Notes under the pieces: generated by a model
Told to the model about the DNA's origin: nothing
The model's database searches: none
Seen by the model: the letters and a program-made list of their open reading frames with translations, nothing else
Shown here: positions 1 to 52,020 of the stretch, piece after piece
Layout of the letters: each line of letters begins with the position of its first letter
How positions within the stretch are numbered: position 1 is the stretch's first letter
Program-made: the position numbers and the translations under genes
DNA from: a virus
Taxonomy: Duplodnaviria; Heunggongvirae; Uroviricota; Caudoviricetes
Direction: 5' to 3' (one strand)
DNA: 64,000 bases
Virus record (IMG/VR): IMGVR_UViG_2861074659_000002

Positions 1-1201
<1,201 letters not shown>

Positions 1202-1224
<23 letters not shown>

Positions 1225-1420
1225 TTCTGATCCTCTTCAAAAGGCCACCTGTTACTGGTCGATTTAAGTCAACCTTTACCGCTGATTCGTGGAACAGATA
1301 CTCTCTTCCATCCTTAACCGGAGGTGGGAATATCCTGCATTCCCGAACCCATCGACGAACTGTTTCAAGGCTTCTTGGACGTCGCTGGCGTGCGTTCCAC
1401 TCCTGAAGTGTCAAGTACAT
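1202..1420 (-). CDS. xis: Excisionase Xis (72 aa)
   Basis: MYLTLQEWNARQRRPRSLETVRRWVRECRIFPP... matches lambda Xis; overlaps int start. Confidence 0.95.
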
Positions 1421-1715
1421 CGCAAAGTCTCCGCAATTACACGCAAGAAAAAACCGCCATCAGGCGGCTTGGTGTTCTTTCAGTTCTTCAATTCGAATAT
1501 TGGTTACGTCTGCATGTGCTATCTGCGCCCATATCATCCAGTGGTCGTAGCAGTCGTTGATGTTCTCCGCTTCGATAACTCTGTTGAATGGCTCTCCATT
1601 CCATTCTCCTGTGACTCGGAAGTGCATTTATCATCTCCATAAAACAAAACCCGCCGTAGCGAGTTCAGATAAAATAAATCCCCGCGAGTGCGAGGATTGT
1701 TATGTAATATTGGGT

Positions 1716-1997
1716 TTAATCATCTATATGTTTTGTACAGAGAGGGCAAGTATCGTTTCCACCGTACTCGTGATAATAATTTTGCACGGTATCAGTCATT
1801 TCTCGCACATTGCAGAATGGGGATTTGTCTTCATTAGACTTATAAACCTTCATGGAATATTTGTATGCCGACTCTATATCTATACCTTCATCTACATAAA
1901 CACCTTCGTGATGTCTGCATGGAGACAAGACACCGGATCTGCACAACATTGATAACGCCCAATCTTTTTGCTCAGACTCTAACTCATTGATACTCAT
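1716..1997 (-). CDS. ea8.5: Ea8.5 protein (93 aa)
   Basis: Position and length match lambda ea8.5 downstream of xis. Confidence 0.8.
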   Translation of the reverse strand: MSINELESEQKDWALSMLCRSGVLSPCRHHEGVYVDEGIDIESAYKYSMKVYKSNEDKSPFCNVREMTDTVQNYYHEYGGNDTCPLCTKHIDD

Positions 1998-2188
1998 TTA
2001 TAAACTCCTTGCAATGTATGTCGTTTCAGCTAAACGGTATCAGCAATGTTTATGTAAAGAAACAGTAAGATAATACTCAACCCGATGTTTGAGTACGGTC
2101 ATCATCTGACACTACAGACTCTGGCATCGCTGTGAAGACGACGCGAAATTCAGCATTTTCACAAGCGTTATCTTTTACAAAACCGATC

Positions 2189-2737
2189 TCACTCTCCTTT
2201 GATGCGAATGCCAGCGTCAGACATCATATGCAGATACTCACCTGCATCCTGAACCCATTGACCTCCAACCCCGTAATAGCGATGCGTAATGATGTCGATA
2301 GTTACTAACGGGTCTTGTTCGATTAACTGCCGCAGAAACTCTTCCAGGTCACCAGTGCAGTGCTTGATAACAGGAGTCTTCCCAGGATGGCGAACAACAA
2401 GAAACTGGTTTCCGTCTTCACGGACTTCGTTGCTTTCCAGTTTAGCAATACGCTTACTCCCATCCGAGATAACACCTTCGTAATACTCACGCTGCTCGTT
2501 GAGTTTTGATTTTGCTGTTTCAAGCTCAACACGCAGTTTCCCTACTGTTAGCGCAATATCCTCGTTCTCCTGGTCGCGGCGTTTGATGTATTGCTGGTTT
2601 CTTTCCCGTTCATCCAGCAGTTCCAGCACAATCGATGGTGTTACCAATTCATGGAAAAGGTCTGCGTCAAATCCCCAGTCGTCATGCATTGCCTGCTCTG
2701 CCGCTTCACGCAGTGCCTGAGAGTTAATTTCGCTCAC
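2189..2737 (-). CDS. ea22: Ea22 protein (182 aa)
   Basis: Position and length match lambda ea22. Confidence 0.8.
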   Translation of the reverse strand: MSEINSQALREAAEQAMHDDWGFDADLFHELVTPSIVLELLDERERNQQYIKRRDQENEDIALTVGKLRVELETAKSKLNEQREYYEGVISDGSKRIAKLESNEVREDGNQFLVVRHPGKTPVIKHCTGDLEEFLRQLIEQDPLVTIDIITHRYYGVGGQWVQDAGEYLHMMSDAGIRIKGE

Positions 2738-2955
2738 TTCGAACCTCTCTGTTTACTGATAAGTTCCAGATCCTCCTGGCAACTTGCACAAGTCCGACAA
2801 CCCTGAACGACCAGGCGTCTTCGTTCATCTATCGGATCGCCACACTCACAACAATGAGTGGCAGATATAGCCTGGTGGTTCAGGCGGCGCATTTTTATTG
2901 CTGTGTTGCGCTGTAATTCTTCTATTTCTGATGCTGAATCAATGATGTCTGCCAT
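2734..2955 (-). CDS. Small hypothetical protein with four-Cys zinc-ribbon motif (CCECGD...CRTCASC), TraR/DksA-like
   Basis: 73 aa ORF overlapping ea22 start by 4 nt (operon-like coupling); Cys spacing typical of C4 zinc finger. Confidence 0.5.
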   Translation of the reverse strand: MADIIDSASEIEELQRNTAIKMRRLNHQAISATHCCECGDPIDERRRLVVQGCRTCASCQEDLELISKQRGSK

Positions 2956-3180
2956 CTTTCATTAATCCCTGAACTGTTGGTTAATACGCTTGAGGGTGAA
3001 TGCGAATAATAAAAAAGGAGCCTGTAGCTCCCTGATGATTTTGCTTTTCATGTTCATCGTTCCTTAAAGACGCCGTTTAACATGCCGATTGCCAGGCTTA
3101 AATGAGTCGGTGTGAATCCCATCAGCGTTACCGTTTCGCGGTGCTTCTTCAGTACGCTACGGCAAATGTCATCGACGTTT

Positions 3181-3366
3181 TTATCCGGAAACTGCTGTCT
3201 GGCTTTTTTTGATTTCAGAATTAGCCTGACGGGCAATGCTGCGAAGGGCGTTTTCCTGCTGAGGTGTCATTGAACAAGTCCCATGTCGGCAAGCATAAGC
3301 ACACAGAATATGAAGCCCGCTGCCAGAAAAATGCATTCCGTGGTTGTCATACCTGGTCTCTCTCAT
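3181..3366 (-). CDS. Hypothetical protein orf61 (61 aa)
   Basis: Length and position match lambda orf61. Confidence 0.55.
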   Translation of the reverse strand: MRETRYDNHGMHFSGSGLHILCAYACRHGTCSMTPQQENALRSIARQANSEIKKSQTAVSG

Positions 3367-3538
3367 CTGCTTCTGCTTTCGCCACCATCATTTCCAGCTT
3401 TTGTGAAAGGGATGCGGCTAACGTATGAAATTCTTCGTCTGTTTCTACTGGTATTGGCACAAACCTGATTCCAATTTGAGCAAGGCTATGTGCCATCTCG
3501 ATACTCGTTCTTAACTCAACAGAAGATGCTTTGTGCAT
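3347..3538 (-). CDS. Hypothetical protein orf63 (63 aa)
   Basis: Length and position match lambda orf63. Confidence 0.55.
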   Translation of the reverse strand: MHKASSVELRTSIEMAHSLAQIGIRFVPIPVETDEEFHTLAASLSQKLEMMVAKAEADERDQV

Positions 3539-3693
3539 ACAGCCCCTCGTTTATTATTTATCTCCTCAGCCAGCCGCTGTGCTTTCAGTGGATTTCGGAT
3601 AACAGAAAGGCCGGGAAATACCCAGCCTCGCTTTGTAACGGAGTAGACGAAAGTGATTGCGCCTACCCGGATATTATCGTGAGGATGCGTCAT
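3511..3693 (-). CDS. Hypothetical protein orf60a (60 aa from second Met of ORF)
   Basis: [19 protein letters not shown]...; 4-nt overlap with exo as in lambda. Confidence 0.55.
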
Positions 3694-4370
3694 CGCCATT
3701 GCTCCCCAAATACAAAACCAATTTCAGCCAGTGCCTCGTCCATTTTTTCGATGAACTCCGGCACGATCTCGTCAAAACTCGCCATGTACTTTTCATCCCG
3801 CTCAATCACGACATAATGCAGGCCTTCACGCTTCATACGCGGGTCATAGTTGGCAAAGTACCAGGCATTTTTTCGCGTCACCCACATGCTGTACTGCACC
3901 TGGGCCATGTAAGCTGACTTTATGGCCTCGAAACCACCGAGCCGGAACTTCATGAAATCCCGGGAGGTAAACGGGCATTTCAGTTCAAGGCCGTTGCCGT
4001 CACTGCATAAACCATCGGGAGAGCAGGCGGTACGCATACTTTCGTCGCGATAGATGATCGGGGATTCAGTAACATTCACGCCGGAAGTGAATTCAAACAG
4101 GGTTCTGGCGTCGTTCTCGTACTGTTTTCCCCAGGCCAGTGCTTTAGCGTTAACTTCCGGAGCCACACCGGTGCAAACCTCAGCAAGCAGGGTGTGGAAG
4201 TAGGACATTTTCATGTCAGGCCACTTCTTTCCGGAGCGGGGTTTTGCTATCACGTTGTGAACTTCTGAAGCGGTGATGACGCCGAGCCGTAATTTGTGCC
4301 ACGCATCTTCCCCCTGTTCGACAGCTCTCACATCGATCCCGGTACGCTGCAGGATAATGTCCGGTGTCAT
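3690..4370 (-). CDS. exo: Lambda exonuclease (Red alpha, 226 aa)
   Basis: [20 protein letters not shown]... matches lambda Exo. Confidence 0.95.
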
Positions 4371-5152
4371 GCTGCCACCTTCTGCTCTGCGGCTTTCTGT
4401 TTCAGGAATCCAAGAGCTTTTACTGCTTCGGCCTGTGTCAGTTCTGACGATGCACGAATGTCGCGGCGAAATATCTGGGAACAGAGCGGCAATAAGTCGT
4501 CATCCCATGTTTTATCCAGGGCGATCAGCAGAGTGTTAATCTCCTGCATGGTTTCATCGTTAACCGGAGTGATGTCGCGTTCCGGCTGACGTTCTGCAGT
4601 GTATGCAGTATTTTCGACAATGCGCTCGGCTTCATCCTTGTCATAGATACCAGCAAATCCGAAGGCCAGACGGGCACACTGAATCATGGCTTTATGACGT
4701 AACATCCGTTTGGGATGCGACTGCCACGGCCCCGTGATTTCTCTGCCTTCGCGAGTTTTGAATGGTTCGCGGCGGCATTCATCCATCCATTCGGTAACGC
4801 AGATCGGATGATTACGGTCCTTGCGGTAAATCCGGCATGTACAGGATTCATTGTCCTGCTCAAAGTCCATGCCATCAAACTGCTGGTTTTCATTGATGAT
4901 GCGGGACCAGCCATCAACGCCCACCACCGGAACGATGCCATTCTGCTTATCAGGAAAGGCGTAAATTTCTTTCGTCCACGGATTAAGGCCGTACTGGTTG
5001 GCAACGATCAGTAATGCGATGAACTGCGCATCGCTGGCATCACCTTTAAATGCCGTCTGGCGAAGAGTGGTGATCAGTTCCTGTGGGTCGACAGAATCCA
5101 TGCCGACACGTTCAGCCAGCTTCCCAGCCAGCGTTGCGAGTGCAGTACTCAT
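4367..5152 (-). CDS. bet: Red beta single-strand annealing protein (261 aa)
   Basis: [48 protein letters not shown]... matches lambda Bet. Confidence 0.95.
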
Positions 5153-5157
5153 TCGTT

Positions 5158-5574
5158 TTATACCTCTGAATCAATATCAACCTGGTGGTGAGCAATGGTT
5201 TCAACCATGTACCGGATGTGTTCTGCCATGCGCTCCTGAAACTCAACATCGTCATCAAACGCACGGGTAATGGATTTTTTGCTGGCCCCGTGGCGTTGCA
5301 AATGATCGATGCATAGCGATTCAAACAGGTGCTGGGGCAGGCCTTTTTCCATGTCGTCTGCCAGTTCTGCCTCTTTCTCTTCACGGGCGAGCTGCTGGTA
5401 GTGACGCGCCCAGCTCTGAGCCTCAAGACGATCCTGAATGTAATAAGCGTTCATGGCTGAACTCCTGAAATAGCTGTGAAAATATCGCCCGCGAAATGCC
5501 GGGCTGATTAGGAAAACAGGAAAGGGGGTTAGTGAATGCTTTTGCTTGATCTCAGTTTCAGTATTAATATCCAT
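5158..5574 (-). CDS. gam: Gam RecBCD inhibitor (138 aa)
   Basis: [24 protein letters not shown]... matches lambda Gam. Confidence 0.95.
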
Positions 5575-5672
5575 TTTTTATAAGCGTCGACGGCTTCACG
5601 AAACATCTTTTCATCGCCAATAAAAGTGGCGATAGTGAATTTAGTCTGGATAGCCATAAGTGTTTGATCCAT
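5529..5672 (-). CDS. kil: Kil host-killing protein (47 aa)
   Basis: [47 protein letters not shown]. Confidence 0.75.
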
Positions 5673-5805
5673 TCTTTGGGACTCCTGGCTGATTAAGTAT
5701 GTCGATAAGGCGTTTCCATCCGTCACGTAATTTACGGGTGATTCGTTCAAGTAAAGATTCGGAAGGGCAGCCAGCAACAGGCCACCCTGCAATGGCATAT
5801 TGCAT
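5641..5805 (-). CDS. cIII: CIII (54 aa), FtsH inhibitor stabilising CII
   Basis: [54 protein letters not shown]. Confidence 0.85.
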   Translation of the reverse strand: MQYAIAGWPVAGCPSESLLERITRKLRDGWKRLIDILNQPGVPKNGSNTYGYPD

Positions 5806-5877
5806 GGTGTGCTCCTTATTTATACATAACGAAAAACGCCTCGAGTGAAGCGTTATTGGTATGCGGTAAAACCGCAC

Positions 5878-6246
5878 TCAGGCGGCCTTGATAGTCATAT
5901 CATCTGAATCAAATATTCCTGATGTATCGATATCGGTAATTCTTATTCCTTCGCTACCATCCATTGGAGGCCATCCTTCCTGACCATTTCCATCATTCCA
6001 GTCGAACTCACACACAACACCATATGCATTTAAGTCGCTTGAAATTGCTATAAGCAGAGCATGTTGCGCCAGCATGATTAATACAGCATTTAATACAGAG
6101 CCGTGTTTATTGAGTCGGTATTCAGAGTCTGACCAGAAATTATTAATCTGGTGAAGTTTTTCCTCTGTCATTACGTCATGGTCGATTTCAATTTCTATTG
6201 ATGCTTTCCAGTCGTAATCAATGATGTATTTTTTGATGTTTGACAT
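5878..6246 (-). CDS. ea10: Ea10 protein (122 aa)
   Basis: Length and position match lambda ea10. Confidence 0.75.
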   Translation of the reverse strand: MSNIKKYIIDYDWKASIEIEIDHDVMTEEKLHQINNFWSDSEYRLNKHGSVLNAVLIMLAQHALLIAISSDLNAYGVVCEFDWNDGNGQEGWPPMDGSEGIRITDIDTSGIFDSDDMTIKAA

Positions 6247-6428
6247 CTGTTCATATCCTCACAGATAAAAAATCGCCCTCACACTGGAGGGCAAAGAAGA
6301 TTTCCAATAATCAGAACAAGTCGGCTCCTGTTTAGTTACGAGCGACATTGCTCCGTGTATTCACTCGTTGGAATGAATACACAGTGCAGTGTTTATTCTG
6401 TTATTTATGCCAAAAATAAAGGCCACTA

Positions 6429-6629
6429 TCAGGCAGCTTTGTTGTTCTGTTTACCAAGTTCTCTGGCAATCATTGCCGTCGTTCGTATTGCCCATTTATC
6501 GACATATTTCCCATCTTCCATTACAGGAAACATTTCTTCAGGCTTAACCATGCATTCCGATTGCAGCTTGCATCCATTGCATCGCTTGAATTGTCCACAC
6601 CATTGATTTTTATCAATAGTCGTAGTCAT
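6429..6629 (-). CDS. ral: Ral restriction-alleviation protein (66 aa)
   Basis: MTTTIDKNQWCGQFKRCNGCKLQSECMVKPEEMFPVMEDGKYVDKWAIRTTAMIARELGKQNNKAA. Confidence 0.85.
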   Translation of the reverse strand: MTTTIDKNQWCGQFKRCNGCKLQSECMVKPEEMFPVMEDGKYVDKWAIRTTAMIARELGKQNNKAA

Positions 6630-6707
6630 ACGGATAGTCCTGGTATTGTTCCATCACATCCTGAGGATGCTCTTCGAACTCTTCAAATTCTTCTTCCATA
6701 TATCACC

Positions 6708-7037
6708 TCAAATAAGTGGTTTGCTGCCTAATTTAATTTTCTGGCGACCAACACAAGTCACACCCATTTCACTGCGTGGCTTGCTGTAGTAAATACGGTT
6801 CTGTTTACGCTCGACTTCTTCTGCCTTCTTGCAGCGAAGGCTTCCGAGTGATGCTGCTTTATCTGCTCTGACGCAACCAGAGAGCTTTAGCGCAATTTTT
6901 CGCGCCAGTGCTTCATTACTGCGTCGCTCGGCAATAAGTTCTGCTCTGCGAGCTTTGTAGCGGCTTTTTGCCGTACCTTTGGATTCTTTCCAGACAATGG
7001 TTACCATGATGGTCTCCTTTAAGTGGCTTTGGCGCAT
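6708..7037 (-). CDS. N: N antiterminator of phage-21 type (ORF 109 aa; true start may be the internal Met at MVTIVWKESKG)
   Basis: Arginine-rich motif GTAKSRYKARRAELIAERR typical of phi21 N; C-terminus resembles lambda N (...GRQKIK..PLI). Confidence 0.8.
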   Translation of the reverse strand: MRQSHLKETIMVTIVWKESKGTAKSRYKARRAELIAERRSNEALARKIALKLSGCVRADKAASLGSLRCKKAEEVERKQNRIYYSKPRSEMGVTCVGRQKIKLGSKPLI

Positions 7038-7300
7038 GACGCGTCGAGGTGCTTATCTTCTCGATCGCTGTCTTGTAGCTGCAATTCGCGCCATCCCCAA
7101 AACCACTCAAGTTCTGGTCTCAACGGTTAGGTTGAGAGTCCGTCGATGTTAAAGAGCCTGCCAATCTGTTCCGTTTGGCTTCCAGCGTCCTGCTGATGGC
7201 TTAAATTTAAGACTTCTTAATTTATTGGTCAAGTGCATTTTTGAAGAAAACTTAATTTTATGGGCGTGAATTTAGTTTGTCTTTGATTTTTAACGGGAAA

Positions 7301-7322
7301 TAAAAAAGGGGCGAAAGCCCCT
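7301..7322 (-). terminator. Rho-independent terminator hairpin downstream of cI (GGGGC-TTTC-GCCCC followed by T-run on minus strand)
   Basis: Perfect 5-bp stem with T6 tail read on minus strand immediately after cI stop. Confidence 0.5.
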
Positions 7323-7972
7323 TAAGGAAGGTTTGCTAGCTTGGCATCAACGACAACGCCAATGATTTTACAGTTCCCATTGATTTCAATCATTGGGTAT
7401 TGTGGATTGAGTGGTTTCAGGAATTTTCTACCGGCATCAATAACTAACTTTTTGAATGTCGCCTCGTTTTCTCCTTCAAGTTTGGCGACTACCAGCTTTC
7501 CATTACGTGGTTCGACTTCTGGGTCGACGAGAATAATCATCCCCTCAGGAATACTCAGTCCTGCCGGGGCAGTCATTGAATCGCCTTTAACGTCGAGCCA
7601 AAAAGAGTCTTCAGAACAATCTACCGTTGTGTCGTACCAGTTATCTATTGCACGCCTATGATATGGCTCTACAGCTTCCATCCAACATCCTGCGCTTACC
7701 CAACTAATTAGAGGATACGAACCTCTTGGATCATGCCTGCTGTGATAGGCAATGTTTGAAAGACTATCCTCTCCTTTCAACAGGTAATCAGGGGAGCACT
7801 GCAAAGCCTTGGCTAAGGCCAATAGGTTTTCGCCATTGGGCTCAGTTTCAGATCGCTCCCATTGGGAAATAGCAACATTAGACACGCCAACCATCTTGCC
7901 AAGGGCAGCCTGCCTAATCTTGAGTTCTTTTCTGCGAGCGCGAATACGCTCACCCATCAGTTGTGTATTCAT
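7322..7972 (-). CDS. cI: CI-type repressor (216 aa), P22 c2 / phage 21 family, HTH N-domain plus LexA-like S24 autocleavage domain
   Basis: MNTQLMGERIRARRKELKIRQAALGKMVGVSNVAISQWERSE...GDSM...NGNCKIIGVVVDAKLANLP; intact in copy 1. Confidence 0.9.
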   Translation of the reverse strand: MNTQLMGERIRARRKELKIRQAALGKMVGVSNVAISQWERSETEPNGENLLALAKALQCSPDYLLKGEDSLSNIAYHSRHDPRGSYPLISWVSAGCWMEAVEPYHRRAIDNWYDTTVDCSEDSFWLDVKGDSMTAPAGLSIPEGMIILVDPEVEPRNGKLVVAKLEGENEATFKKLVIDAGRKFLKPLNPQYPMIEINGNCKIIGVVVDAKLANLP

Positions 7973-8052
7973 AGTTAAGACATCTTAAATAAACTTGACT
8001 TAAGATTCCTTTGGTGGATAATTTAAGTGTTCTTTAATTTCGGAGCGAGTCT
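7973..8052. promoter_or_regulatory. Divergent operator/promoter region between cI and cro (OR with pR and pRM); candidate pR -35 TTGACT (7995..8000) and -10 GATAAT (8017..8022)
   Basis: 80-bp intergenic region between divergent repressor genes with sigma70-like hexamers at 16-bp spacing. Confidence 0.55.
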
Positions 8053-8237
8053 ATGTACAAAAAAGATGTTATTGACCACTTCGGAACCCAGCGTGCTGTT
8101 GCTAAGCACTAGGCATTAGCGATGCAGCAGTCTCTCAGTGGAAAGAAGTTATCCCAGAGAAAGACGCCTATCGATTGGAAATCGTTACAGCTGGCGCCCT
8201 GAAGTATCAAGAAAGTGCTTACCGCCAAGCGGCATAA
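8053..8237 (+). pseudogene. cro: Cro (P22 / phage 21 type) interrupted by a 1-bp deletion after codon 18 (AAA to AA), premature stop
   Basis: MYKKDVIDHFGTQRAVAKH* in copy 1 versus intact 61-aa ORF at 51392..51577 in copy 2. Confidence 0.8.
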
Positions 8238-8352
8238 GCAAATTGCTCTTTAACAGTTCTGGCCTTTCACCTCTAACCGGGTGAGCAAACATCAGCGGCA
8301 AATCCATTGGGTGTGCCGCTATAACTCAATATCAATATAGGTAAATTAACAA

Positions 8353-8650
8353 ATGGCACAAGCAAGCTACAGCAAGCCAACACAGCGAGAAATTGATCGC
8401 GCTGAAACTGATTTACTCATCAACCTGTCAACGCTTACCCAGCGCGGTCTGGCAAAGATGATTGGCTGTCATGAATCGAGATAAGCAGAACGGACTGGAG
8501 ATTATTGCTTCGGTCTTGTGTGCTTTCGGAATGGCATCAGACATCAGTCCGATTAGCAGGGCTTTTAAGTATGCGCTTGATGGACTCACAAAGAAAAAAC
8601 GCCCGGTGTGCAAGACCGAGCGTTCTGAACAAATCCAGATGGAGTTCTGA
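8353..8650 (+). pseudogene. cII: CII-like activator, apparently split over three reading frames (N-terminal 43 codons, then C-terminal ...KKKRPVCKTERSEQIQMEF in another frame)
   Basis: N-terminus MAQASYSKPTQREIDRAETDLLINLSTLTQRGLAKMIGCHES resembles cII HTH region; C-terminus matches lambda CII tail; same in both copies. Confidence 0.55.
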
Positions 8651-8681
8651 GGTCATTACTGGATCTATCAACAGAGTCATT

Positions 8682-9576
8682 ATGACAAATACAGCAAAAT
8701 ACTCAACTTCGGCAGAGGTAACTTGCCGGACAGGAGCGTAATGTGGCAGATCTCGATGATGGTTACGCCAGACTATCAAATATGCTGCTTGAGGCTTATT
8801 CGGGCGCAGATCTGACCAAGCGACAGTTTAAAGTGCTGCTTGCCATTCTGCGTAAACCTATGGTGGAATAAACCAATGGACAGAATCACCGATTCTCAAC
8901 TTAGCGAGATTACAAAGTTACCTGTCAAACGGTGCAATGAAGCCAAGTTAGAACTCGTCAGAATGAATATTATCAAGCAGCAAGGCGGCATGTTTGGACC
9001 AAATAAAAACATCTCAGAATGGTGTATCCCTCAAACGAGGGGAAAATCCCCTAAACGAGGGATAAAACATCCCTCAAATTGGGGGATTGCTATCCCTCAA
9101 AACAGGGGGACACAAAAGACACTATTACAAAAGAAAAAAGAAAAGATTATTCGTCAGAGAATTCTGGCGAATCCTCTGACCAGCCAGAAAACGACCTTTC
9201 TGTGGTGAAACCGGATGCTGCAATTCAGAGCGGCAGCAAGTGGGGGACAGCAGAAGACCTGACCGCCGCAGAGTGGATGTTTGACATGGTGAAGACTATC
9301 GCACCATCAGCCAGAAAACCGAATTTTGCTGGGTGGGCTAACGATATCCGCCTGATGCGTGAACGTGACGGACGTAACCACCGCGACATGTGTGTGCTGT
9401 TCCGCTGGGCATGCCAGGACAACTTCTGGTCCGGTAACGTGCTGAGCCCGGCCAAACTCCGCGATAAGTGGACCCAACTCGAAATCAACCGTAACAAGCA
9501 ACAGGCAGGCGTGACAGCCAGCAAACCAAAACTCGACCTGACAAACACAGACTGGATTTACGGGGTGGATCTATGA
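8682..9576 (+). pseudogene. O: Replication initiator O, fragmented by several 1-nt indels in N-terminal region and iterons; C-terminal 165 aa domain intact
   Basis: MTNTAK then frame breaks; pieces ...NKPMDRITDSQLSEITKLPVKRCNEAKLELVRMNIIKQQGGMFGPNKNISEWCIPQ and CYPSKQGDTKDT...WIYGVDL match lambda O in different frames. Confidence 0.8.
9026..9150. promoter_or_regulatory. ori: Origin of replication (four O-binding iterons ATCCCTCAAA-CGAGGG type plus AT-rich region) embedded in O
   Basis: Four tandem ~18-20 bp inverted-repeat iterons followed by A-rich tract; iteron spacer lengths differ from what I recall for lambda. Confidence 0.7.
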
Positions 9577-10274
9577 AAAACATCGCCGCACAGATGGTTA
9601 ACTTTGACCGTGAGCAGATGCGTCGGATCGCCAACAACATGCCGGAACAGTACGACGAAAAGCCGCAGGTACAGCAGGTAGCGCAGATCATCAACGGTGT
9701 GTTCAGCCAGTTACTGGCAACTTTCCCGGCGAGCCTGGCTAACCGTGACCAGAACGAAGTGAACGAAATCCGTCGCCAGTGGGTTCTGGCTTTTCGGGAA
9801 AACGGGATCACCACGATGGAACAGGTTAACGCAGGAATGCGCGTAGCCCGTCGGCAGAATCGACCATTTCTGCCATCACCCGGGCAGTTTGTTGCATGGT
9901 GCCGGGAAGAAGCATCCGTTACCGCCGGACTGCCAAACGTCAGCGAGCTGGTTGATATGGTTTACGAGTATTGCCGGAAGCGAGGCCTGTATCCGGATGC
10001 GGAGTCTTATCCGTGGAAATCAAACGCGCACTACTGGCTGGTTACCAACCTGTATCAGAACATGCGGGCCAATGCGCTTACTGATGCGGAATTACGCCGT
10101 AAGGCCGCAGATGAGCTTGTCCATATGACTGCGAGAATTAACCGTGGTGAGGCGATCCCTGAACCAGTAAAACAACTTCCTGTCATGGGCGGTAGACCTC
10201 TAAATCGTGCACAGGCTCTGGCGAAGATCGCAGAAATCAAAGCTAAGTTCGGACTGAAAGGAGCAAGTGTATGA
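9573..10274 (+). CDS. P: Replication protein P (DnaB helicase loader, 233 aa)
   Basis: Full-length match to lambda P. Confidence 0.95.
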
Positions 10275-11074
10275 CGGGCAAAGAGGCAATTATTCATTAC
10301 CTGGGGACGCATAATAGCTTCTGTGCGCCGGACGTTGCCGCGCTAACAGGCGCAACAGTAACCAGCATAAATCAGGCCGCGGCTAAAATGGCACGGGCAG
10401 GTCTTCTGGTTATCGAAGGTAAGGTCTGGCGAACGGTGTATTACCGGTTTGCTACCAGGGAAGAACGGGAAGGAAAGATGAGCACGAACCTGATGAACAA
10501 ACTGGATACGATTGGATTCGACAACAAAAAAGACCTGCTTATCTCGGTGGGCGATTTGGTTGATCGTGGTGCAGAGAACGTTGAATGCCTGGAATTAATC
10601 ACATTCCCCTGGTTCAGAGCTGTACGTGGAAACCATGAGCAAATGATGATTGATGGCTTATCAGAGCGTGGAAACGTTAATCACTGGCTGCTTAATGGCG
10701 GTGGCTGGTTCTTTAATCTCGATTACGACAAAGAAATTCTGGCTAAAGCTCTTGCCCATAAAGCAGATGAACTTCCGTTAATCATCGAACTGGTGAGCAA
10801 AGATAAAAAATATGTTATCTGCCACGCCGATTATCCCTTTGACGAATACGAGTTTGGAAAGCCAGTTGATCATCAGCAGGTAATCTGGAACCGCGAACGA
10901 ATCAGCAACTCACAAAACGGGATCGTGAAAGAAATCAAAGGCGCGGACACGTTCATCTTTGGTCATACGCCAGCAGTGAAACCACTCAAGTTTGCCAACC
11001 AAATGTATATCGATACCGGCGCAGTGTTCTGCGGAAACCTAACATTGATTCAGGTACAGGGAGAAGGCGCATGA
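10271..11074 (+). CDS. Ren-NinI fusion created by nin5-type deletion; C-terminal part is Ser/Thr protein phosphatase (lambda PPase) with GDxVDRG and GNHE motifs
   Basis: N-terminus [27 protein letters not shown] (Ren) joined in frame to ...[36 protein letters not shown]...RGNHE (NinI/orf221). Confidence 0.85.
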
Positions 11075-11694
11075 GACTCGAAAGCGTAGCTAAATTTCAT
11101 TCGCCAAAAAGCCCGATGATGAGCGACTCACCACGGGCCACGGCTTCTGACTCTCTTTCCGGTACTGATGTGATGGCTGCTATGGGGATGGCGCAATCAC
11201 AAGCCGGATTCGGTATGGCTGCATTCTGCGGTAAGCACGAACTCAGCCAGAACGACAAACAAAAGGCTATCAACTATCTGATGCAATTTGCACACAAGGT
11301 ATCGGGGAAATACCGTGGTGTGGCATATCTTGAAGGAAATACTAAGGCAAAGGTACTGCAAGTGCTCGCAACATTCGCTTATGCGGATTATTGCCGTAGT
11401 GCCGCGACGCCGGGGGCAAGATGCAGAGATTGCCATGGTACAGGCCGTGCGGTTGATATTGCCAAAACAGAGCTGTGGGGGAGAGTTGTCGAGAAAGAGT
11501 GCGGAAGATGCAAAGGCGTCGGCTATTCAAGGATGCCAGCAAGCGCAGCATATCGCGCTGTGACGATGCTAATCCCAAACCTTACCCAACCCACCTGGTC
11601 ACGCACTGTTAAGCCGCTGTATGACGCTCTGGTGGTGCAATGCCACAAAGAAGAGTCAATCGCAGACAACATTTTGAATGCGGTCACACGTTAG
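11071..11694 (+). CDS. Q: Late gene antiterminator Q (207 aa)
   Basis: Length/position and sequence match lambda Q. Confidence 0.9.
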
Positions 11695-11736
11695 CAGCAT
11701 GATTGCCACGGATGGCAACATATTAACGGCATGATA

Positions 11737-11766
11737 TTGACTTATTGAATAAAATTGGGTAAATTT
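11737..11766 (+). promoter_or_regulatory. Late promoter pR' (-35 TTGACT 11737..11742, -10 TAAATT 11760..11765, 17-bp spacer), with qut region
   Basis: Consensus-like sigma70 hexamers downstream of Q and about 190 nt upstream of tR'. Confidence 0.65.
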
Positions 11767-11805
11767 GACTCAACGATGGGTTAATTCGCTCGTTGTGGTA
11801 GTGAG

Positions 11806-12000
11806 ATGAAAAGAGGCGGCGCTTACTACCGATTCCGCCTAGTTGGTCACTTCGACGTATCGTCTGGAACTCCAACCATCGCAGGCAGAGAGGTCTGCAA
11901 AATGCAATCCCGAAACAGTTCGCAGGTAATAGTTAGAGCCTGCATAACGGTTTCGGGATTTTTTATATCTGCACAACAGGTAAGAGCATTGAGTCGATAA
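11806..12000 (+). CDS. Hypothetical orf-64 overlapping 6S leader RNA region
   Basis: 64-aa ORF at lambda orf-64 position; coding status doubtful. Confidence 0.3.
   Translation: MKRGGAYYRFRLVGHFDVSSGTPTIAGREVCKMQSRNSSQVIVRACITVSGFFISAQQVRALSR
11905..11966 (+). terminator. tR' terminator (3' end of 6S RNA): stem AATCCCGAAAC...GTTTCGGGATT followed by T-run
   Basis: Long GC-containing hairpin followed by TTTTTTA. Confidence 0.65.
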
Positions 12001-12370
12001 TCGTGAAGAGTCGGCGAGCCTGGTTAGCCAGTGCTCTTTCCGTTGTGCTGAATTAAGCGAATACCGGAAGCAGAACCGGATCACCAAATGCGTACAGGCG
12101 TCATCGCCGCCCAGCAACAGCACAACCCAAACTGAGCCGTAGCCACTGTCTGTCCTGAATTCATTAGTAATAGTTACGCTGCGGCCTTTTACACATGACC
12201 TTCGTGAAAGCGGGTGGCAGGAGGTCGCGCTAACAACCTCCTGCCGTTTTGCCCGTGCATATCGGTCACGAACAAATCTGATTACTAAACACAGTAGCCT
12301 GGATTTGTTCTATCAGTAATCGACCTTATTCCTAATTAAATAGAGCAAATCCCCTTATTGGGGGTAAGAC

Positions 12371-12694
12371 ATGAAGATGCCAGAAAAACATGACCTGTTG
12401 GCCGCCATTCTCGCGGCAAAGGAACAAGGCATCGGGGCAATCCTTGCGTTTGCAATGGCGTACCTTCGCGGCAGATATAATGGCGGTGCGTTTACAAAAA
12501 CAGTAATCGACGCAACGATGTGCGCCATTATCGCCTGGTTCATTCGTGACCTTCTCGACTTCGCCGGACTAAGTAGCAATCTCGCTTATATAACGAGCGT
12601 GTTTATCGGCTACATCGGTACTGACTCGATTGGTTCGCTTATCAAACGCTTCGCTGCTAAAAAAGCCGGAGTAGAAGATGGTAGAAATCAATAA
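12371..12694 (+). CDS. S: Holin/antiholin S (S107 from Met1; S105 holin from Met3 at 12377), wild type
   Basis: [34 protein letters not shown]...; dual-start MKM motif; Trp56 codon intact. Confidence 0.95.
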
Positions 12695-13154
12695 TCAACG
12701 TAAGGCGTTCCTCGATATGCTGGCGTGGTCGGAGGGAACTGATAACGGACGTCAGAAAACCAGAAATCATGGTTATGACGTCATTGTAGGCGGAGAGCTA
12801 TTCACTGATTACTCCGATCACCCTCGCAAACTTGTCACGCTAAACCCAAAACTCAAATCAACAGGCGCCGGACGCTACCAGCTTCTTTCCCGTTGGTGGG
12901 ATGCCTACCGCAAGCAGCTTGGCCTGAAAGACTTCTCTCCGAAAAGTCAGGACGCTGTGGCATTGCAGCAGATTAAGGAGCGTGGCGCTTTACCTATGAT
13001 TGATCGTGGTGATATCCGTCAGGCAATCGACCGTTGCAGCAATATCTGGGCTTCACTGCCGGGCGCTGGTTATGGTCAGTTCGAGCATAAGGCTGACAGC
13101 CTGATTGCAAAATTCAAAGAAGCGGGCGGAACGGTCAGAGAGATTGATGTATGA
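12678..13154 (+). CDS. R: Endolysin R (lytic transglycosylase, 158 aa)
   Basis: [28 protein letters not shown]... matches lambda R. Confidence 0.95.
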
Positions 13155-13612
13155 GCAGAGTCACCGCGATTATCTCCGCTCTGGTTATCTGCATCATCGT
13201 CTGCCTGTCATGGGCTGTTAATCATTACCGTGATAACGCCATTACCTACAAAGCCCAGCGCGACAAAAATGCCAGAGAACTGAAGCTGGCGAACGCGGCA
13301 ATTACTGACATGCAGATGCGTCAGCGTGATGTTGCTGCGCTCGATGCAAAATACACGAAGGAGTTAGCTGATGCTAAAGCTGAAAATGATGCTCTGCGTG
13401 ATGATGTTGCCGCTGGTCGTCGTCGGTTGCACATCAAAGCAGTCTGTCAGTCAGTGCGTGAAGCCACCACCGCCTCCGGCGTGGATAATGCAGCCTCCCC
13501 CCGACTGGCAGACACCGCTGAACGGGATTATTTCACCCTCAGAGAGAGGCTGATCACTATGCAAAAACAACTGGAAGGAACCCAGAAGTATATTAATGAG
13601 CAGTGCAGATAG
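13151..13612 (+). CDS. Rz: Spanin inner-membrane subunit Rz (153 aa)
   Basis: Matches lambda Rz. Confidence 0.9.
13371..13553 (+). CDS. Rz1: Spanin outer-membrane lipoprotein Rz1 (60 aa), embedded in +1 frame of Rz
   Basis: [23 protein letters not shown]... lipobox LVVVGC, proline-rich. Confidence 0.85.
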
Positions 13613-13643
13613 AGCTGACCATATCGATGGGCAACTCATGCAA

Positions 13644-13937
13644 TTATTTTGAGCAATACACACGCGCTTCCAGCGGAGTATAAATGCCTAAAGTAATAAA
13701 ACCGAGCAATCCATTTACGAATGTTTGCTGGGTTTCTGTTTTAACAACATTTTCTGCGCCGCCACAAATTTTAGCTGCATCGACAGTTTTCTTCTGCCCA
13801 ATTCCAGAAACGAAGAAATGATGGGTGATGGTTTCCTTTGGTGCTACTGCTGCCGGTTTGTTTTGAACAGTAAACGTCTGTTGAGCACATCCTGTAATAA
13901 GCAGGGCCAGCGCAGTAGCGAGTAGCATTTTTTTCAT
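13644..13937 (-). CDS. bor: Bor lipoprotein (serum resistance, 97 aa)
   Basis: MKKMLLATALALLITGCAQQ... lipobox; matches lambda Bor. Confidence 0.9.
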   Translation of the reverse strand: MKKMLLATALALLITGCAQQTFTVQNKPAAVAPKETITHHFFVSGIGQKKTVDAAKICGGAENVVKTETQQTFVNGLLGFITLGIYTPLEARVYCSK

Positions 13938-14226
13938 GGTGTTATTCCCGATGCTTTTTGAAGTTCGCAGAATCGTATGTGTAGAAAATTAAACAAACCC
14001 TAAACAATGAGTTGAAATTTCATATTGTTAATATTTATTAATGTATGTCAGGTGCGATGAATCGTCATTGTATTCCCGGATTAACTATGTCCACAGCCCT
14101 GACGGGGAACTTCTCTGCGGGAGTGTCCGGGAATAATTAAAACGATGCACACAGGGTTTAGCGCGTACACGTATTGCATTATGCCAACGCCCCGGTGCTG
14201 ACACGGAAGAAACCGGACGTTATGAT

Positions 14227-14760
14227 TTAGCGTGGAAAGATTTGTGTAGTGTTCTGAATGCTCTCAGTAAATAGTAATGAATTATCAAAGGTATAGTAAT
14301 ATCTTTTATGTTCATGGATATTTGTAACCCATCGGAAAACTCCTGCTTTAGCAAGATTTTCCCTGTATTGCTGAAATGTGATTTCTCTTGATTTCAACCT
14401 ATCATAGGACGTTTCTATAAGATGCGTGTTTCTTGAGAATTTAACATTTACAACCTTTTTAAGTCCTTTTATTAACACGGTGTTATCGTTTTCTAACACG
14501 ATGTGAATATTATCTGTGGCTAGATAGTAAATATAATGTGAGACGTTGTGACGTTTTAGTTCAGAATAAAACAATTCACAGTCTAAATCTTTTCGCACTT
14601 GATCGAATATTTCTTTAAAAATGGCAACCTGAGCCATTGGTAAAACCTTCCATGTGATACGAGGGCGCGTAGTTTGCATTATCGTTTTTATCGTTTCAAT
14701 CTGGTCTGACCTCCTTGTGTTTTGTTGATGATTTATGTCAAATATTAGGAATGTTTTCAC
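14227..14760 (-). CDS. Hypothetical protein (lambda p78-like, 177 aa)
   Basis: ORF at lambda p78 position between bor and cos. Confidence 0.6.
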
Positions 14761-14922
14761 TTAATAGTATTGGTTGCGTAACAAAGTGCGGTCCTGCTGG
14801 CATTCTGGAGGGAAATACAACCGACAGATGTATGTAAGGCCAACGTGCTCAAATCTTCATACAGAAAGATTTGAAGTAATATTTTAACCGCTAGATGAAG
14901 AGCAAGCGCATGGAGCGACAAA

Positions 14923-15129
14923 ATGAATAAAGAACAATCTGCTGATGATCCCTCCGTGGATCTGATTCGTGTAAAAAATATGCTTAATAGCACCATTTCT
15001 ATGAGTTACCCTGATGTTGTAATTGCATGTATAGAACATAAGGTGTCTCTGGAAGCATTCAGAGCAATTGAGGCAGCGTTGGTGAAGCACGATAATAATA
15101 TGAAGGATTATTCCCTGGTGGTTGACTGA
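14923..15129 (+). CDS. Hypothetical protein (lambda p79-like, 68 aa)
   Basis: ORF at lambda p79 position. Confidence 0.4.
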
Positions 15130-15293
15130 TCACCATAACTGCTAATCATTCAAACTATTTAGTCTGTGACAGAGCCAACACGCAGTCTGTCACTGTCAGG
15201 AAAGTGGTAAAACTGCAACTCAATTACTGCAATGCCCTCGTAATTAAGTGAATTTACAATATCGTCCTGTTCGGAGGGAAGAACGCGGGATGT

Positions 15294-15488
15294 TCATTCT
15301 TCATCACTTTTAATTGATGTATATGCTCTCTTTTCTGACGTTAGTCTCCGACGGCAGGCTTCAATGACCCAGGCTGAGAAATTCCCGGACCCTTTTTGCT
15401 CAAGAGCGATGTTAATTTGTTCAATCATTTGGTTAGGAAAGCGGATGTTGCGGGTTGTTGTTCTGCGGGTTCTGTTCTTCGTTGACAT
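15294..15488 (-). CDS. Putative small ribbon-helix-helix DNA-binding protein (64 aa)
   Basis: RNIRFPNQMIEQINIALEQKG...FSAWVIEACRRRL pattern resembles Arc/CopG RHH fold; about 200 bp from cos. Confidence 0.35.
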   Translation of the reverse strand: MSTKNRTRRTTTRNIRFPNQMIEQINIALEQKGSGNFSAWVIEACRRRLTSEKRAYTSIKSDEE

Positions 15489-15675
15489 GAGGTTGCCCCG
15501 TATTCAGTGTCGCTGATTTGTATTGTCTGAAGTTGTTTTTACGTTAAGTTGATGCAGATCAATTAATACGATACCTGCGTCATAATTGATTATTTGACGT
15601 GGTTTGATGGCCTCCACGCACGTTGTGATATGTAGATGATAATCATTATCACTTTACGGGTCCTTTCCGGTGATC

Positions 15676-15699
15676 CGACAGGTTACGGGGCGGCGACCT
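15676..15699. other. cos: cos site (cosN); right end ...CAGGTTACG joined to left-end 12-nt cohesive sequence GGGCGGCGACCT
   Basis: Exact lambda cohesive-end sequence at 15688..15699 followed by Nu1 190 nt downstream. Confidence 0.9.
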
Positions 15700-16422: not shown

Positions 16423-20103
<3,681 letters not shown>

Positions 20104-38369: not shown

Positions 38370-39602
38370 TCAATTGTTCATAGTGTTTACATCACCGCCA
38401 ATTGCTTTTAAGACTGAACGCATGAAATATGGTTTTTCGTCATGTTTTGAGTCTGCTGTTGATATTTCTAAAGTCGGTTTTTTTTCTTCGTTTTCTCTAA
38501 CTATTTTCCATGAAATACATTTTTGATTATTATTTGAATCAATTCCAATTACCTGAAGTCTTTCATCTATAATTGGCATTGTATGTATTGGTTTATTGGA
38601 GTAGATGCTTGCTTTTCTGAGCCATAGCTCTGATATCCAAATGAAGCCATAGGCATTTGTTATTTTGGCTCTGTCAGCTGCATAACGCCAAAAAATATAT
38701 TTATCTGCTTGATCTTCAAATGTTGTATTGATTAAATCAATTGGATGGAATTGTTTATCATAAAAAATTAATGTTTGAATGTGATAACCGTCCTTTAAAA
38801 AAGTCGTTTCTGCAAGCTTGGCTGTATAGTCAACTAACTCTTCTGTCGAAGTGATATTTTTAGGCTTATCTACCAGTTTTAGACGCTCTTTAATATCTTC
38901 AGGAATTATTTTATTGTCATATTGTATCATGCTAAATGACAATTTGCTTATGGAGTAATCTTTTAATTTTAAATAAGTTATTCTCCTGGCTTCATCAAAT
39001 AAAGAGTCGAATGATGTTGGCGAAATCACATCGTCACCCATTGGATTGTTTATTTGTATGCCAAGAGAGTTACAGCAGTTATACATTCTGCCATAGATTA
39101 TAGCTAAGGCATGTAATAATTCGTAATCTTTTAGCGTATTAGCGACCCATCGTCTTTCTGATTTAATAATAGATGATTCAGTTAAATATGAAGGTAATTT
39201 CTTTTGTGCAAGTCTGACTAACTTTTTTATACCAATGTTTAACATACTTTCATTTGTAATAAACTCAATGTCATTTTCTTCAATGTAAGATGAAATAAGA
39301 GTAGCCTTTGCCTCGCTATACATTTCTAAATCGCCTTGTTTTTCTATCGTATTGCGAGAATTTTTAGCCCAAGCCATTAATGGATCATTTTTCCATTTTT
39401 CAATAACATTATTGTTATACCAAATGTCATATCCTATAATCTGGTTTTTGTTTTTTTGAATAATAAATGTTACTGTTCTTGCGGTTTGGAGGAATTGATT
39501 CAAATTCAAGCGAAATAATTCAGGGTCAAAATATGTATCAATGCAGCATTTGAGCAAGTGCGATAAATCTTTAAGTCTTCTTTCCCATGGTTTTTTAGTC
39601 AT
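38370..39602 (-). CDS. ea47: Ea47 accessory protein (410 aa from Met at 39602; ORF extends to 39629), function unknown
   Basis: Low-GC b-region ORF at lambda ea47 position. Confidence 0.7.
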   Translation of the reverse strand: MTKKPWERRLKDLSHLLKCCIDTYFDPELFRLNLNQFLQTARTVTFIIQKNKNQIIGYDIWYNNNVIEKWKNDPLMAWAKNSRNTIEKQGDLEMYSEAKATLISSYIEENDIEFITNESMLNIGIKKLVRLAQKKLPSYLTESSIIKSERRWVANTLKDYELLHALAIIYGRMYNCCNSLGIQINNPMGDDVISPTSFDSLFDEARRITYLKLKDYSISKLSFSMIQYDNKIIPEDIKERLKLVDKPKNITSTEELVDYTAKLAETTFLKDGYHIQTLIFYDKQFHPIDLINTTFEDQADKYIFWRYAADRAKITNAYGFIWISELWLRKASIYSNKPIHTMPIIDERLQVIGIDSNNNQKCISWKIVRENEEKKPTLEISTADSKHDEKPYFMRSVLKAIGGDVNTMNN

Positions 39603-40192
39603 AAAACTCTCCATTTTGATAGGTTGCATGCTAGATGCTGATATATTTTAGAGGTGATAAAATTAACTGCTTAACTGTCAATGTAATACAAGTTGTTTGA
39701 TCTTTGCAATGATTCTTATCAGAAACCATATAGTAAATTAGTTACACAGGAAATTTTTAATATTATTATTATCATTCATTATGTATTAAAATTAGAGTTG
39801 TGGCTTGGCTCTGCTAACACGTTGCTCATAGGAGATATGGTAGAGCCGCAGACACGTCGTATGCAGGAACGTGCTGCGGCTGGCTGGTGAACTTCCGATA
39901 GTGCGGGTGTTGAATGATTTCCAGTTGCTACCGATTTTACATATTTTTTGCATGAGAGAATTTGTACCACCTCCCACCGACCATCTATGACTGTACGCCA
40001 CTGTCCCTAGGACTGCTATGTGCCGGAGCGGACATTACAAACGTCCTTCTCGGTGCATGCCACTGTTGCCAATGACCTGCCTAGGAATTGGTTAGCAAGT
40101 TACTACCGGATTTTGTAAAAACAGCCCTCCTCATATAAAAAGTATTCGTTCACTTCCGATAAGCGTCGTAATTTTCTATCTTTCATCATATT

Positions 40193-41083
40193 CTAGATCC
40201 CTCTGAAAAAATCTTCCGAGTTTGCTAGGCACTGATACATAACTCTTTTCCAATAATTGGGGAAGTCATTCAAATCTATAATAGGTTTCAGATTTGCTTC
40301 AATAAATTCTGACTGTAGCTGCTGAAACGTTGCGGTTGAACTATATTTCCTTATAACTTTTACGAAAGAGTTTCTTTGAGTAATCACTTCACTCAAGTGC
40401 TTCCCTGCCTCCAAACGATACCTGTTAGCAATATTTAATAGCTTGAAATGATGAAGAGCTCTGTGTTTGTCTTCCTGCCTCCAGTTCGCCGGGCATTCAA
40501 CATAAAAACTGATAGCACCCGGAGTTCCGGAAACGAAATTTGCATATACCCATTGCTCACGAAAAAAAATGTCCTTGTCGATATAGGGATGAATCGCTTG
40601 GTGTACCTCATCTACTGCGAAAACTTGACCTTTCTCTCCCATATTGCAGTCGCGGCACGATGGAACTAAATTAATAGGCATCACCGAAAATTCAGGATAA
40701 TGTGCAATAGGAAGAAAATGATCTATATTTTTTGTCTGTCCTATATCACCACAAAATGGACATTTTTCACCTGATGAAACAAGCATGTCATCGTAATATG
40801 TTCTAGCGGGTTTGTTTTTATCTCGGAGATTATTTTCATAAAGCTTTTCTAATTTAACCTTTGTCAGGTTACCAACTACTAAGGTTGTAGGCTCAAGAGG
40901 GTGTGTCCTGTCGTAGGTAAATAACTGACCTGTCGAGCTTAATATTCTATATTGTTGTTCTTTCTGCAAAAAAGTGGGGAAGTGAGTAATGAAATTATTT
41001 CTAACATTTATCTGCATCATACCTTCCGAGCATTTATTAAGCATTTCGCTATAAGTTCTCGCTGGAAGAGGTAGTTTTTTCAT
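40193..41083 (-). CDS. ea31: Ea31 accessory protein (296 aa) with HNH-type nuclease motif
   Basis: CPFCGD...IDHFLPIAHYPEFSVMPINLVPSCRDCNMGEKG resembles HNH endonuclease (Cys pairs flanking His-Asn-His-like core); 4-nt overlap with ea59. Confidence 0.75.
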   Translation of the reverse strand: MKKLPLPARTYSEMLNKCSEGMMQINVRNNFITHFPTFLQKEQQYRILSSTGQLFTYDRTHPLEPTTLVVGNLTKVKLEKLYENNLRDKNKPARTYYDDMLVSSGEKCPFCGDIGQTKNIDHFLPIAHYPEFSVMPINLVPSCRDCNMGEKGQVFAVDEVHQAIHPYIDKDIFFREQWVYANFVSGTPGAISFYVECPANWRQEDKHRALHHFKLLNIANRYRLEAGKHLSEVITQRNSFVKVIRKYSSTATFQQLQSEFIEANLKPIIDLNDFPNYWKRVMYQCLANSEDFFRGI

Positions 41084-42657: not shown

Positions 42658-43259
42658 ATAGTAACCCTTAATTTTATTAAAATAACCGCAATTTATTTGG
42701 CGGCAACACAGGATCTCTCTTTTAAGTTACTCTCTATTACATACGTTTTCCATCTAAAAATTAGTAGTATTGAACTTAACGGGGCATCGTATTGTAGTTT
42801 TCCATATTTAGCTTTCTGCTTCCTTTTGGATAACCCACTGTTATTCATGTTGCATGGTGCACTGTTTATACCAACGATATAGTCTATTAATGCATATATA
42901 GTATCGCCGAACGATTAGCTCTTCAGGCTTCTGAAGAAGCGTTTCAAGTACTAATAAGCCGATAGATAGCCACGGACTTCGTAGCCATTTTTCATAAGTG
43001 TTAACTTCCGCTCCTCGCTCATAACAGACATTCACTACAGTTATGGCGGAAAGGTATGCATGCTGGGTGTGGGGAAGTCGTGAAAGAAAAGAAGTCAGCT
43101 GCGTCGTTTGACATCACTGCTATCTTCTTACTGGTTATGCAGGTCGTAGTGGGTGGCACACAAAGCTTTGCACTGGATTGCGAGGCTTTGTGCTTCTCTG
43201 GAGTGCGACAGGTTTGATGACAAAAAATTAGCGCAAGAAGACAAAAATCACCTTGCGCT

Positions 43260-43500
43260 AATGCTCTGTTACAGGTCACTAATACCATCTAAGTAGTTGA
43301 TTCATAGTGACTGCATATGTTGTGTTTTACAGTATTATGTAGTCTGTTTTTTATGCAAAATCTAATTTAATATATTGATATTTATATCATTTTACGTTTC
43401 TCGTTCAGCTTTTTTATACTAAGTTGGCATTATAAAAAAGCATTGCTTATCAATTTGTTGCAACGAACAGGTCACTATCAGTCAAAATAAAATCATTATT
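43260..43500. other. attP: attP attachment site, common core GCTTTTTTATACTAA at 43408..43422, flanked by AT-rich arm sequences
   Basis: Exact lambda att core with phage sequence on both sides (b region left, int right). Confidence 0.9.
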
Positions 43501-48494: not shown

Positions 48495-48499
48495 CCGTT

Positions 48500-49147: not shown

Positions 49148-49219
49148 GGTGTGCTCCTTATTTATACATAACGAAAAACGCCTCGAGTGAAGCGTTATTG
49201 GTATGCGGTAAAACCGCAC

Positions 49220-51989: not shown

Positions 51990-52020
51990 GGTCATTACTG
52001 GATCTATCAACAGAGTCATT

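Follow-up and report, generated by a model that had tools for sequence, protein, structure and literature searches.

The stretch analysed here, referred to as the window, comprises 64,000 nucleotides of the Caudoviricetes record IMGVR_UViG_2861074659_000002 in IMG/VR, and its positions 6709-8614 almost certainly represent the immunity region of coliphage 21 (imm21) set in a lambda chromosome, i.e., the classical lambda imm21 hybrid that a first-pass annotation of this DNA had proposed. The structure of this swap has been known since the 1960s-70s and is no discovery, and lambda imm21 has been fully sequenced (OM418625.1; Feiss et al. 2022, PMC9119081). The carrier is a laboratory vector related to the D69/DE3 lineage, which is present as two tandem copies (hereafter copy 1 and copy 2).

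The reference records were those of lambda imm21 (OM418625), DE3 (EU078592/NC_042057), phage 21 (OL657228), lambda (NC_001416) and P22 (NC_002371). Relative to phage 21, lambda imm21 and DE3, the segment 6709-8614 contains no substitutions and three one-base deletions. A 2.6-kb query around it (6300-8900) matched DE3, lambda imm21, lambda h434 imm21 and phage 21 over its full length (100% coverage, 99.6-99.7% identity), as well as every DE3-carrying E. coli laboratory strain. All differences from DE3 in this stretch are insertions or deletions (indels) of one base, and the difference list between the window and DE3 is free of substitutions over the longer interval 3800-11400. Alignments with lambda revealed scattered similarity at most over 6709-8614, and the comparison with both reference immunity regions that had been suggested as a check thus did not place the segment closer to lambda. 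Overall, approximately 1.91 kb of phage 21 DNA stands in place of approximately 4.25 kb of lambda (34,367-38,617), a lost segment that comprises sieB, N, rexB, rexA, cI, cro and most of cII. The incoming segment carries 21-type N, nutL, PL/OL, cI, OR/PR, cro, nutR and most of cII, and is flanked by lambda ral and orf28 on the left and by the lambda-identical end of cII, oop, O and P on the right. The same order emerged from the list of open reading frames (ORFs): ral, N, a 284-bp control region, cI, an 80-bp operator region, cro, cII, O and P.

The boundaries of non-homology to lambda were mapped to single positions. On the left, lambda identity ends at 6708 (lambda 34,366), the first base of the N stop codon, which places the boundary at 6708/6709. 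On the right, unbroken lambda identity starts at 8615 (lambda 38,618) and covers the last 11 codons of cII (TERSEQIQMEF) and everything rightward, so that the boundary (8614/8615) falls inside the oop terminator, 11 codons before the end of cII. Beyond these boundaries the two phages hardly differ, and the true joints were therefore sought via the sites at which phage 21 and lambda can be told apart. In copy 1, such informative sites are lambda-type over 3415-6367, 21-type over 6709-9025 and again lambda-type over 9156-9922, with 66 lambda-type sites flanking the segment on the left and 24 on the right. The features defined in this way are as follows.

6368-6708, no strand: left lambda/21 crossover of copy 1 (informative single-nucleotide polymorphisms, SNPs, and lambda alignment).
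9026-9155, inside O, no strand: right lambda/21 crossover of copy 1 (runs of informative sites and alignment).
8596-8626, minus strand: oop terminator hairpin across the right non-homology boundary (terminator scan and lambda alignment).

It had been claimed that the C-terminus of cII and everything rightward revert to lambda sequence. This holds for homology from 8615 onward, but the true joint lies further right, at 9026-9155 within O. The last 21-type site, position 9025, has the phage 21 base and corresponds to a silent TGC>TGT change at lambda 39,033 (C>T), which has been published for lambda imm21, as has an altered cII/oop overlap (PMC3349717).

The absence of the lambda exclusion genes, also anticipated by the first-pass annotation, was borne out by several searches. 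When lambda RexA, RexB and SieB were compared with the whole 64 kb by tblastn, nothing better than E = 0.17 was obtained, and P22 SieB gave nothing better than E = 0.82 over the same 64 kb. The PADLOC models of RexA and RexB matched no imm21 protein, with the lambda controls being positive (9e-110 and 8.6e-61). Taken together, the mapped boundaries and the gene searches indicate that sieB, rexB and rexA are gone, and the Rex exclusion system is predicted not to be encoded in the 64 kb.

The left arm of the region comprises the following features.

6429-6629, minus strand: ral, lambda-type, 66 amino acids (ORF; 100% identity to lambda Ral by tblastn; Pfam Ral, E = 1.6e-48).
6613-6699, minus strand: lambda orf28, occupying the 78 bp between ral and N (28/28 residues identical; annotated in DE3).
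6708-7007, minus strand: phage 21 N antiterminator, 99 amino acids, with a TGA stop at 6708-6710 (ORF; annotated as N in DE3 and phage 21).
6921-6986, minus strand: arginine-rich motif of N, the boxB RNA-binding peptide, residues 8-29, ESKGTAKSRYKARRAELIAERR (22/22 identity to PDB 1NYB chain A).
7118-7157, minus strand: nutL, with the boxB hairpin at 7118-7137 and boxA at 7150-7157 (coordinates from the phage 21 annotation).

The last lambda gene of known function to the left of the substitution is ral, and the distance of 78 bp between its start (6629) and the N stop codon (from 6708) agrees with the earlier count. The N ORF contains GTAKSRYKARRAELIAERR. Because PDB 1NYB chain A is the phage 21 N peptide, the identity over residues 8-29 supports the assignment of this motif to the phi21 type that had been made from the letters alone. 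Likeness to lambda N is limited to the C-terminal 37 amino acids (59%), and P22 gene 24 gave no BLASTP match to the 21-type N. The boxB of nutL has a predicted 7-bp stem and 6-nt loop, and the boxB hairpins of nutL and nutR share the loop CUAACC and are positioned as in the phage 21 record. A scan of 6000-9600 against Rfam (E <= 0.1) gave no match, and boxB and oop were therefore left without confirmation by that route.

The repressor gene and the two control regions on either side of it are listed below.

7204-7286, minus strand: control block with PL at 7232-7204 (-35 TTGACC, -10 TAAATT), which overlaps the operators (promoter scan).
7205-7222, minus strand: OL1 (operator pattern, 0 mismatches).
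7240-7257, minus strand: OL2 (operator pattern, 1 mismatch).
7269-7286, minus strand: OL3 (phage 21 annotation only; absent among pattern matches with up to 2 mismatches).
7306-7323, minus strand: intrinsic terminator directly after cI (terminator scan; fold of -12.1 kcal/mol, z = -2.7; phage 21 annotation).
7322-7972, minus strand: phage 21 cI repressor, 216 amino acids, intact in copy 1 (Pfam HTH_3 and Peptidase_S24).
7973-8038, plus strand: OR, three 18-bp sites at 7973-7990, 7998-8015 and 8021-8038 (0, 1 and 0 mismatches to the pattern).
7995-8000 (-35 TTGACT) and 8017-8022 (-10 GATAAT), plus strand: PR, with a spacer of 16, overlapping OR (promoter scan).

The cI protein is identical to phage 21 cI in the difference list and shows 93.5% identity to P22 c2 over 216 amino acids vs 34.5% to lambda cI, and its first 76 residues, the DNA-binding domain, align with the P22 c2 structure PDB 1ADR (E = 1.9e-39). 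The operators were searched with ANTNAAG-N4-CTTNANT, which we take to be the 18-bp P22 operator consensus, and all ten sites in the 64 kb that fit it with at most one mismatch fall in OL or OR of the two copies. Given that the terminator lies immediately after cI, there is nothing between cI and OL, i.e., no rex genes.

On the right side of the region, the following features were found.

8053-8237, plus strand: phage 21 cro, P22-Cro type, frameshifted as written (translation; DE3 and phage 21 difference list).
8245-8284, plus strand: nutR, with boxA GCTCTTTA at 8245-8252 and the boxB hairpin at 8267-8284 (phage 21 annotation, sequence and predicted hairpin).
8353-8650, plus strand: phage 21 cII, frameshifted at 8479 and 8502 (ORF fragments 8353-8484 and 8462-8650; difference list).
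8362-8375, plus strand: CII site of PRE, TTGC-N6-TTGC (within the cII entry).
8682-9576, plus strand: replication gene O with ori iterons, lambda-type, fragmented (ORF list; DE3, lambda imm21 and lambda difference lists).

In copy 1, cro has lost one A at 8104, which leads to a stop after codon 19, and its DNA is of the phage 21/P22 type. The reference imm21 Cro is identical to P22 Cro (PDB 1RZS) at 60 of 61 residues, and a tblastn search of the 64 kb with lambda Cro gave no match (best E = 8.8). The earlier statement that cI and cro are of the P22 c2/cro type rather than the lambda type is thus correct, with the refinement that the P22 likeness is confined to the PL-OL-cI-OR-cro block (approximately 7143-8255, 83.6% nucleotide identity) and does not extend to N or cII (BLASTP). 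The reference imm21 cII matches Pfam Phage_CII (E = 2.1e-36) and shows 39% identity to lambda cII, and no BLASTP match was found between P22 c1 and the 21-type cII. As written, O of copy 1 carries six one-base deletions and one insertion (8696-9053).

The window spans approximately 1.5 units of a 43.34-kb repeat (period 43,339-43,342). Mapped against lambda imm21, 313-15687 runs from int through nin5 to the cos junction, 15688-59026 contains cos, A-J, the b region, attP, int, imm21 and nin5, and 59027-64000 is the start of a further left arm (cos junctions at 15687/15688 and 59026/59027). The units are joined by an intact attP (core 43408-43422), an arrangement expected of a tandem dilysogen or a concatemer. 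The attP, int, b region and structural genes of this backbone are lambda's own. Copy 1 starts with the first 101 codons of TEM bla (window 1-318), window position 1 being the A of the bla ATG. This bla' fragment is followed by an EcoRI/BamHI linker, GGAATTCGGATCC, whose junction with lambda lies at the int BamHI site, and int of copy 1 consequently lacks its 3' end (approximately 53 codons, as estimated from lambda coordinates). No occurrence of the 35-mer across the bla'-int junction was found in IMG/VR, GTDB genomes or JGI metagenomes, and no complete E. coli genome in RefSeq spans the junction.

Further marks of the backbone lie outside the immunity region. A deletion of 2,806 bp (lambda 40,502-43,307), namely nin5, has its junction at 10483-10494 in copy 1 and the same junction at 53822-53833 in copy 2, and fuses ren to the ninI phosphatase in a 267-codon ORF (10271-11074) identical to that of DE3. 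Relative to lambda imm21 OM418625, there is also a 12-bp insertion in terminase gene A (17550-17561 and 60889-60900), which is common to DE3 and looks like a lineage marker of this laboratory-lambda family. The EcoRI-B segment of the lambda b region, including ea47, ea31, ea59 and their neighbours, is present at 36916-41787 and collinear with lambda. As this segment is deleted in DE3, the backbone is not D69/DE3 itself. A possible relative of the vector is lambdaRS45 ('imm21 ind+ bla'-lacZsc'), and no open-access paper combining imm21, nin5 and D69 was found in the literature.

The C-terminal, host-range part of gene J carries two substitutions (C>T at 34188 and G>T at 34417) relative to DE3 and lambda imm21, which could be an h-type marker of the vector.

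The second unit carries its own immunity region, with the following coordinates.

50050-51989, no strand: copy 2 imm21 region (repeat period, copy-to-copy differences and ORFs).
50050-50349: copy 2 N.
50664-51311: copy 2 cI, broken by three one-base deletions.
51392-51577: copy 2 cro, intact (translation).
51692-51989: copy 2 cII, with the same two deletions as in copy 1.

Copy 2 has an intact int and shows phage 21 SNPs over exo-bet-gam-kil-cIII-ea10-ral (46922-49709). These 21-type sites indicate a different left crossover (46866-46921), and hence a lambda/21 hybrid distinct from that of copy 1.

The first-pass annotation had missed that several genes, namely cII and O in both copies, cro in copy 1 and cI in copy 2, are frameshifted in the sequence as it stands. 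Copy 1 has 11 indels (10 one-base deletions and one insertion) over 8104-9053, which break cro once, cII twice and O; the cluster in copy 2 (50908-52392) has 14 and breaks cI, cII and O. Ten indels, from cII to O, are common to both copies, and copy 2 has in addition three one-base deletions and one substitution (51287) in cI and one deletion after cro. Each of the 25 clustered indels changes the length of a homopolymer run of 2-5 bases (45% of bases lie in runs of at least 2), and the copy 1 cluster contains no substitution and the copy 2 cluster one, at 51287. At least 120 IMG/VR contigs contain the cII 46-mer in its intact form and none contains the form of the window, and searches with the window's own variants found no copy of the cro-deletion 30-mer in IMG/VR and no copy of the cII-deletion 44-mer in IMG/VR or GTDB genomes. 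Isolated one-base deletions relative to DE3 and lambda imm21 are also present in the essential genes C (21195), K (30112) and J (34223), each of which would be lethal to the phage if real, and the deletion in C falls in the BamHI-5505 site (GGATCC in lambda, GGATAC in DE3 and GGATC here).

The broken frames of cro, cII and O, together with that of cI in copy 2, most likely reflect errors of sequencing or assembly and not biology, considering that all of the changes are in homopolymer length, that the copy 1 cluster is free of substitutions, that the two copies disagree and that intact cII is widespread in IMG/VR. Some observations weigh against our interpretation. The vector is not DE3. In the sequence as given, neither copy has an intact cII or O, copy 1 lacks an intact cro and copy 2 an intact cI, and any functional description of them therefore holds only if the indels are artefacts. 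In addition, the clustering is strong, with 11 indels in 950 bp, where 0.08 would be expected from the rate elsewhere in copy 1, vs 3 in approximately 35.6 kb, and ten of them are common to the copies, so that simple random read error is not a sufficient explanation. We cannot explain the confinement of the indels to approximately 1.5 kb or their partial sharing between copies.

If the frameshifts were real, each copy would supply a function missing from the other (genotypes cI+ cro- cII- O- in copy 1 and cI- cro+ cII- O- in copy 2), and the pair would form a locked, non-replicating and non-inducible dilysogen. The deletions do stand in the sequence as given, the ten identical ones are unlike random and independent read errors, and a repressed prophage would be under no selection to keep cro, cII and O. 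However, 25 changes of homopolymer length in two clusters of approximately 1-1.5 kb each, with almost no substitutions (the one at 51287), and three separate one-base deletions within a single cI are hard to reconcile with mutation, the window's versions of the cro 30-mer and the cII 44-mer are absent from the databases searched whereas intact cII is common, and similar one-base losses have hit the essential C, K and J. We consider real frameshifts very unlikely. Likewise very unlikely is the more specific proposal that genuine deletions arose by localised homopolymer slippage in a locked lysogen, natural or deliberate, which would have in copy 1 its sole intact repressor and in copy 2 its sole intact Cro.

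The identity of the carrier may be weighed against that of known elements. The DE3 prophage of BL21(DE3)-type expression strains resembles it in several respects: DE3 and strains that carry it give the best database matches, its crossover intervals agree with those found here, no substitution occurs over 3800-11400, and both share the ren-ninI fusion left by nin5, the 12 bp added in gene A and the use of the int BamHI site for an insert. The insert differs, however, being lacI-lacUV5-T7 gene 1 in DE3 vs bla' and the linker GGAATTCGGATCC here, and DE3 positions 255-4696 (lacI, lacUV5 and T7 gene 1) are unmatched anywhere in the window. EcoRI-B, a 4.9-kb segment that DE3 has lost, is kept at 36916-41787, the BamHI-5505 site lacks the C>A change of DE3, the one-base indels set the window apart, and a second copy with an intact int follows. 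It is exceedingly improbable that the element is DE3, and this identity was rejected on the absence of T7 gene 1 and lacI, the retention of EcoRI-B and the different BamHI-5505 site. A native phage 21 prophage or natural mosaic prophage has a practically negligible probability and was rejected on the lambda-type flanks and lambda attP and int. In its favour, the imm21 segment shows identity to phage 21, immunity modules of the 21 type are frequent in wild E. coli prophages (97-98% identity) and in IMG/VR, and copy 2 bears phage 21 SNPs through exo-ral. Against it, the 66 left and 24 right informative sites flanking the copy 1 segment are lambda-type, the attP, int and b region come from lambda and not from phage 21, which has another integrase and an attP beside an icd fragment, and nin5, bla' and the synthetic EcoRI/BamHI linker mark a laboratory construct.

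The laboratory hybrid can be placed more precisely by comparison with its relatives. Lambda imm21 OM418625 has the same phage 21 segment with the same non-homology boundaries, lacks rexAB and sieB as well, and is lambda-type, like the window, at every position from 313 to the left boundary. It differs in having additional phage 21 SNPs through O into P (equivalent to window 9156-9922, where the window is lambda-type), in being nin+ and in having no insert in int. Phage 21 itself is identical to the window over 6368-9155 except for the one-base indels, and its annotation can be transferred directly for N, nutL, OL, cI, OR, cro, nutR, cII and PRE, whereas it has its own integrase and attP (icd site), head genes and accessory genes, and copy 1 is lambda-type outside 6368-9155. 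The immC region of P22 (c2-cro) resembles the window throughout PL-OL-c2-OR-cro, including the same 18-bp operator pattern, but P22 has sieB/esc between ral and gene 24, with nothing in the corresponding place here. The lambda immunity region shows the same order (N, PL/OL, cI, OR/PR, cro, nutR and cII) and the same switch logic. The N C-terminus, cI and cII align at the identities given above. Unlike the window, lambda has sieB, rexB and rexA, operators of 17 bp, its own type of boxB and of N arginine-rich motif, and an unrelated Cro.

The sequence shows the components of the region, and how they would work can be outlined from established knowledge of lambda, P22 and phage 21. The cI repressor of phage 21 would bind the 18-bp P22-type operators at OL and OR and thereby turn off PL and PR, and a lysogen would be immune to phages of 21 immunity and not to lambda or 434. 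In the reverse direction, lambda imm21 escapes the immunity of a lambda lysogen (PMC1885671). On induction, the arginine-rich motif of N would bind the 21-type boxB of nutL and nutR and N would antiterminate transcription both leftward and rightward, while Cro and cII of phage 21 would have their usual roles in the lysis/lysogeny switch, as in lambda. Since rexA and rexB are absent, a lysogen would be unable to exclude T4 rII (PMC1885671 and PMC11077077). Without sieB, SieB exclusion would likewise be lost.

The value of these results is one of bookkeeping only, in that the window is recognized as a laboratory lambda imm21 nin5 vector in a tandem double copy, and no open biological question is touched. 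Annotation of the genes described here should be carried over from lambda, phage 21 and DE3, and the broken frames of cro, cII, O and cI are to be regarded as probable errors in the sequence and not as pseudogenes.

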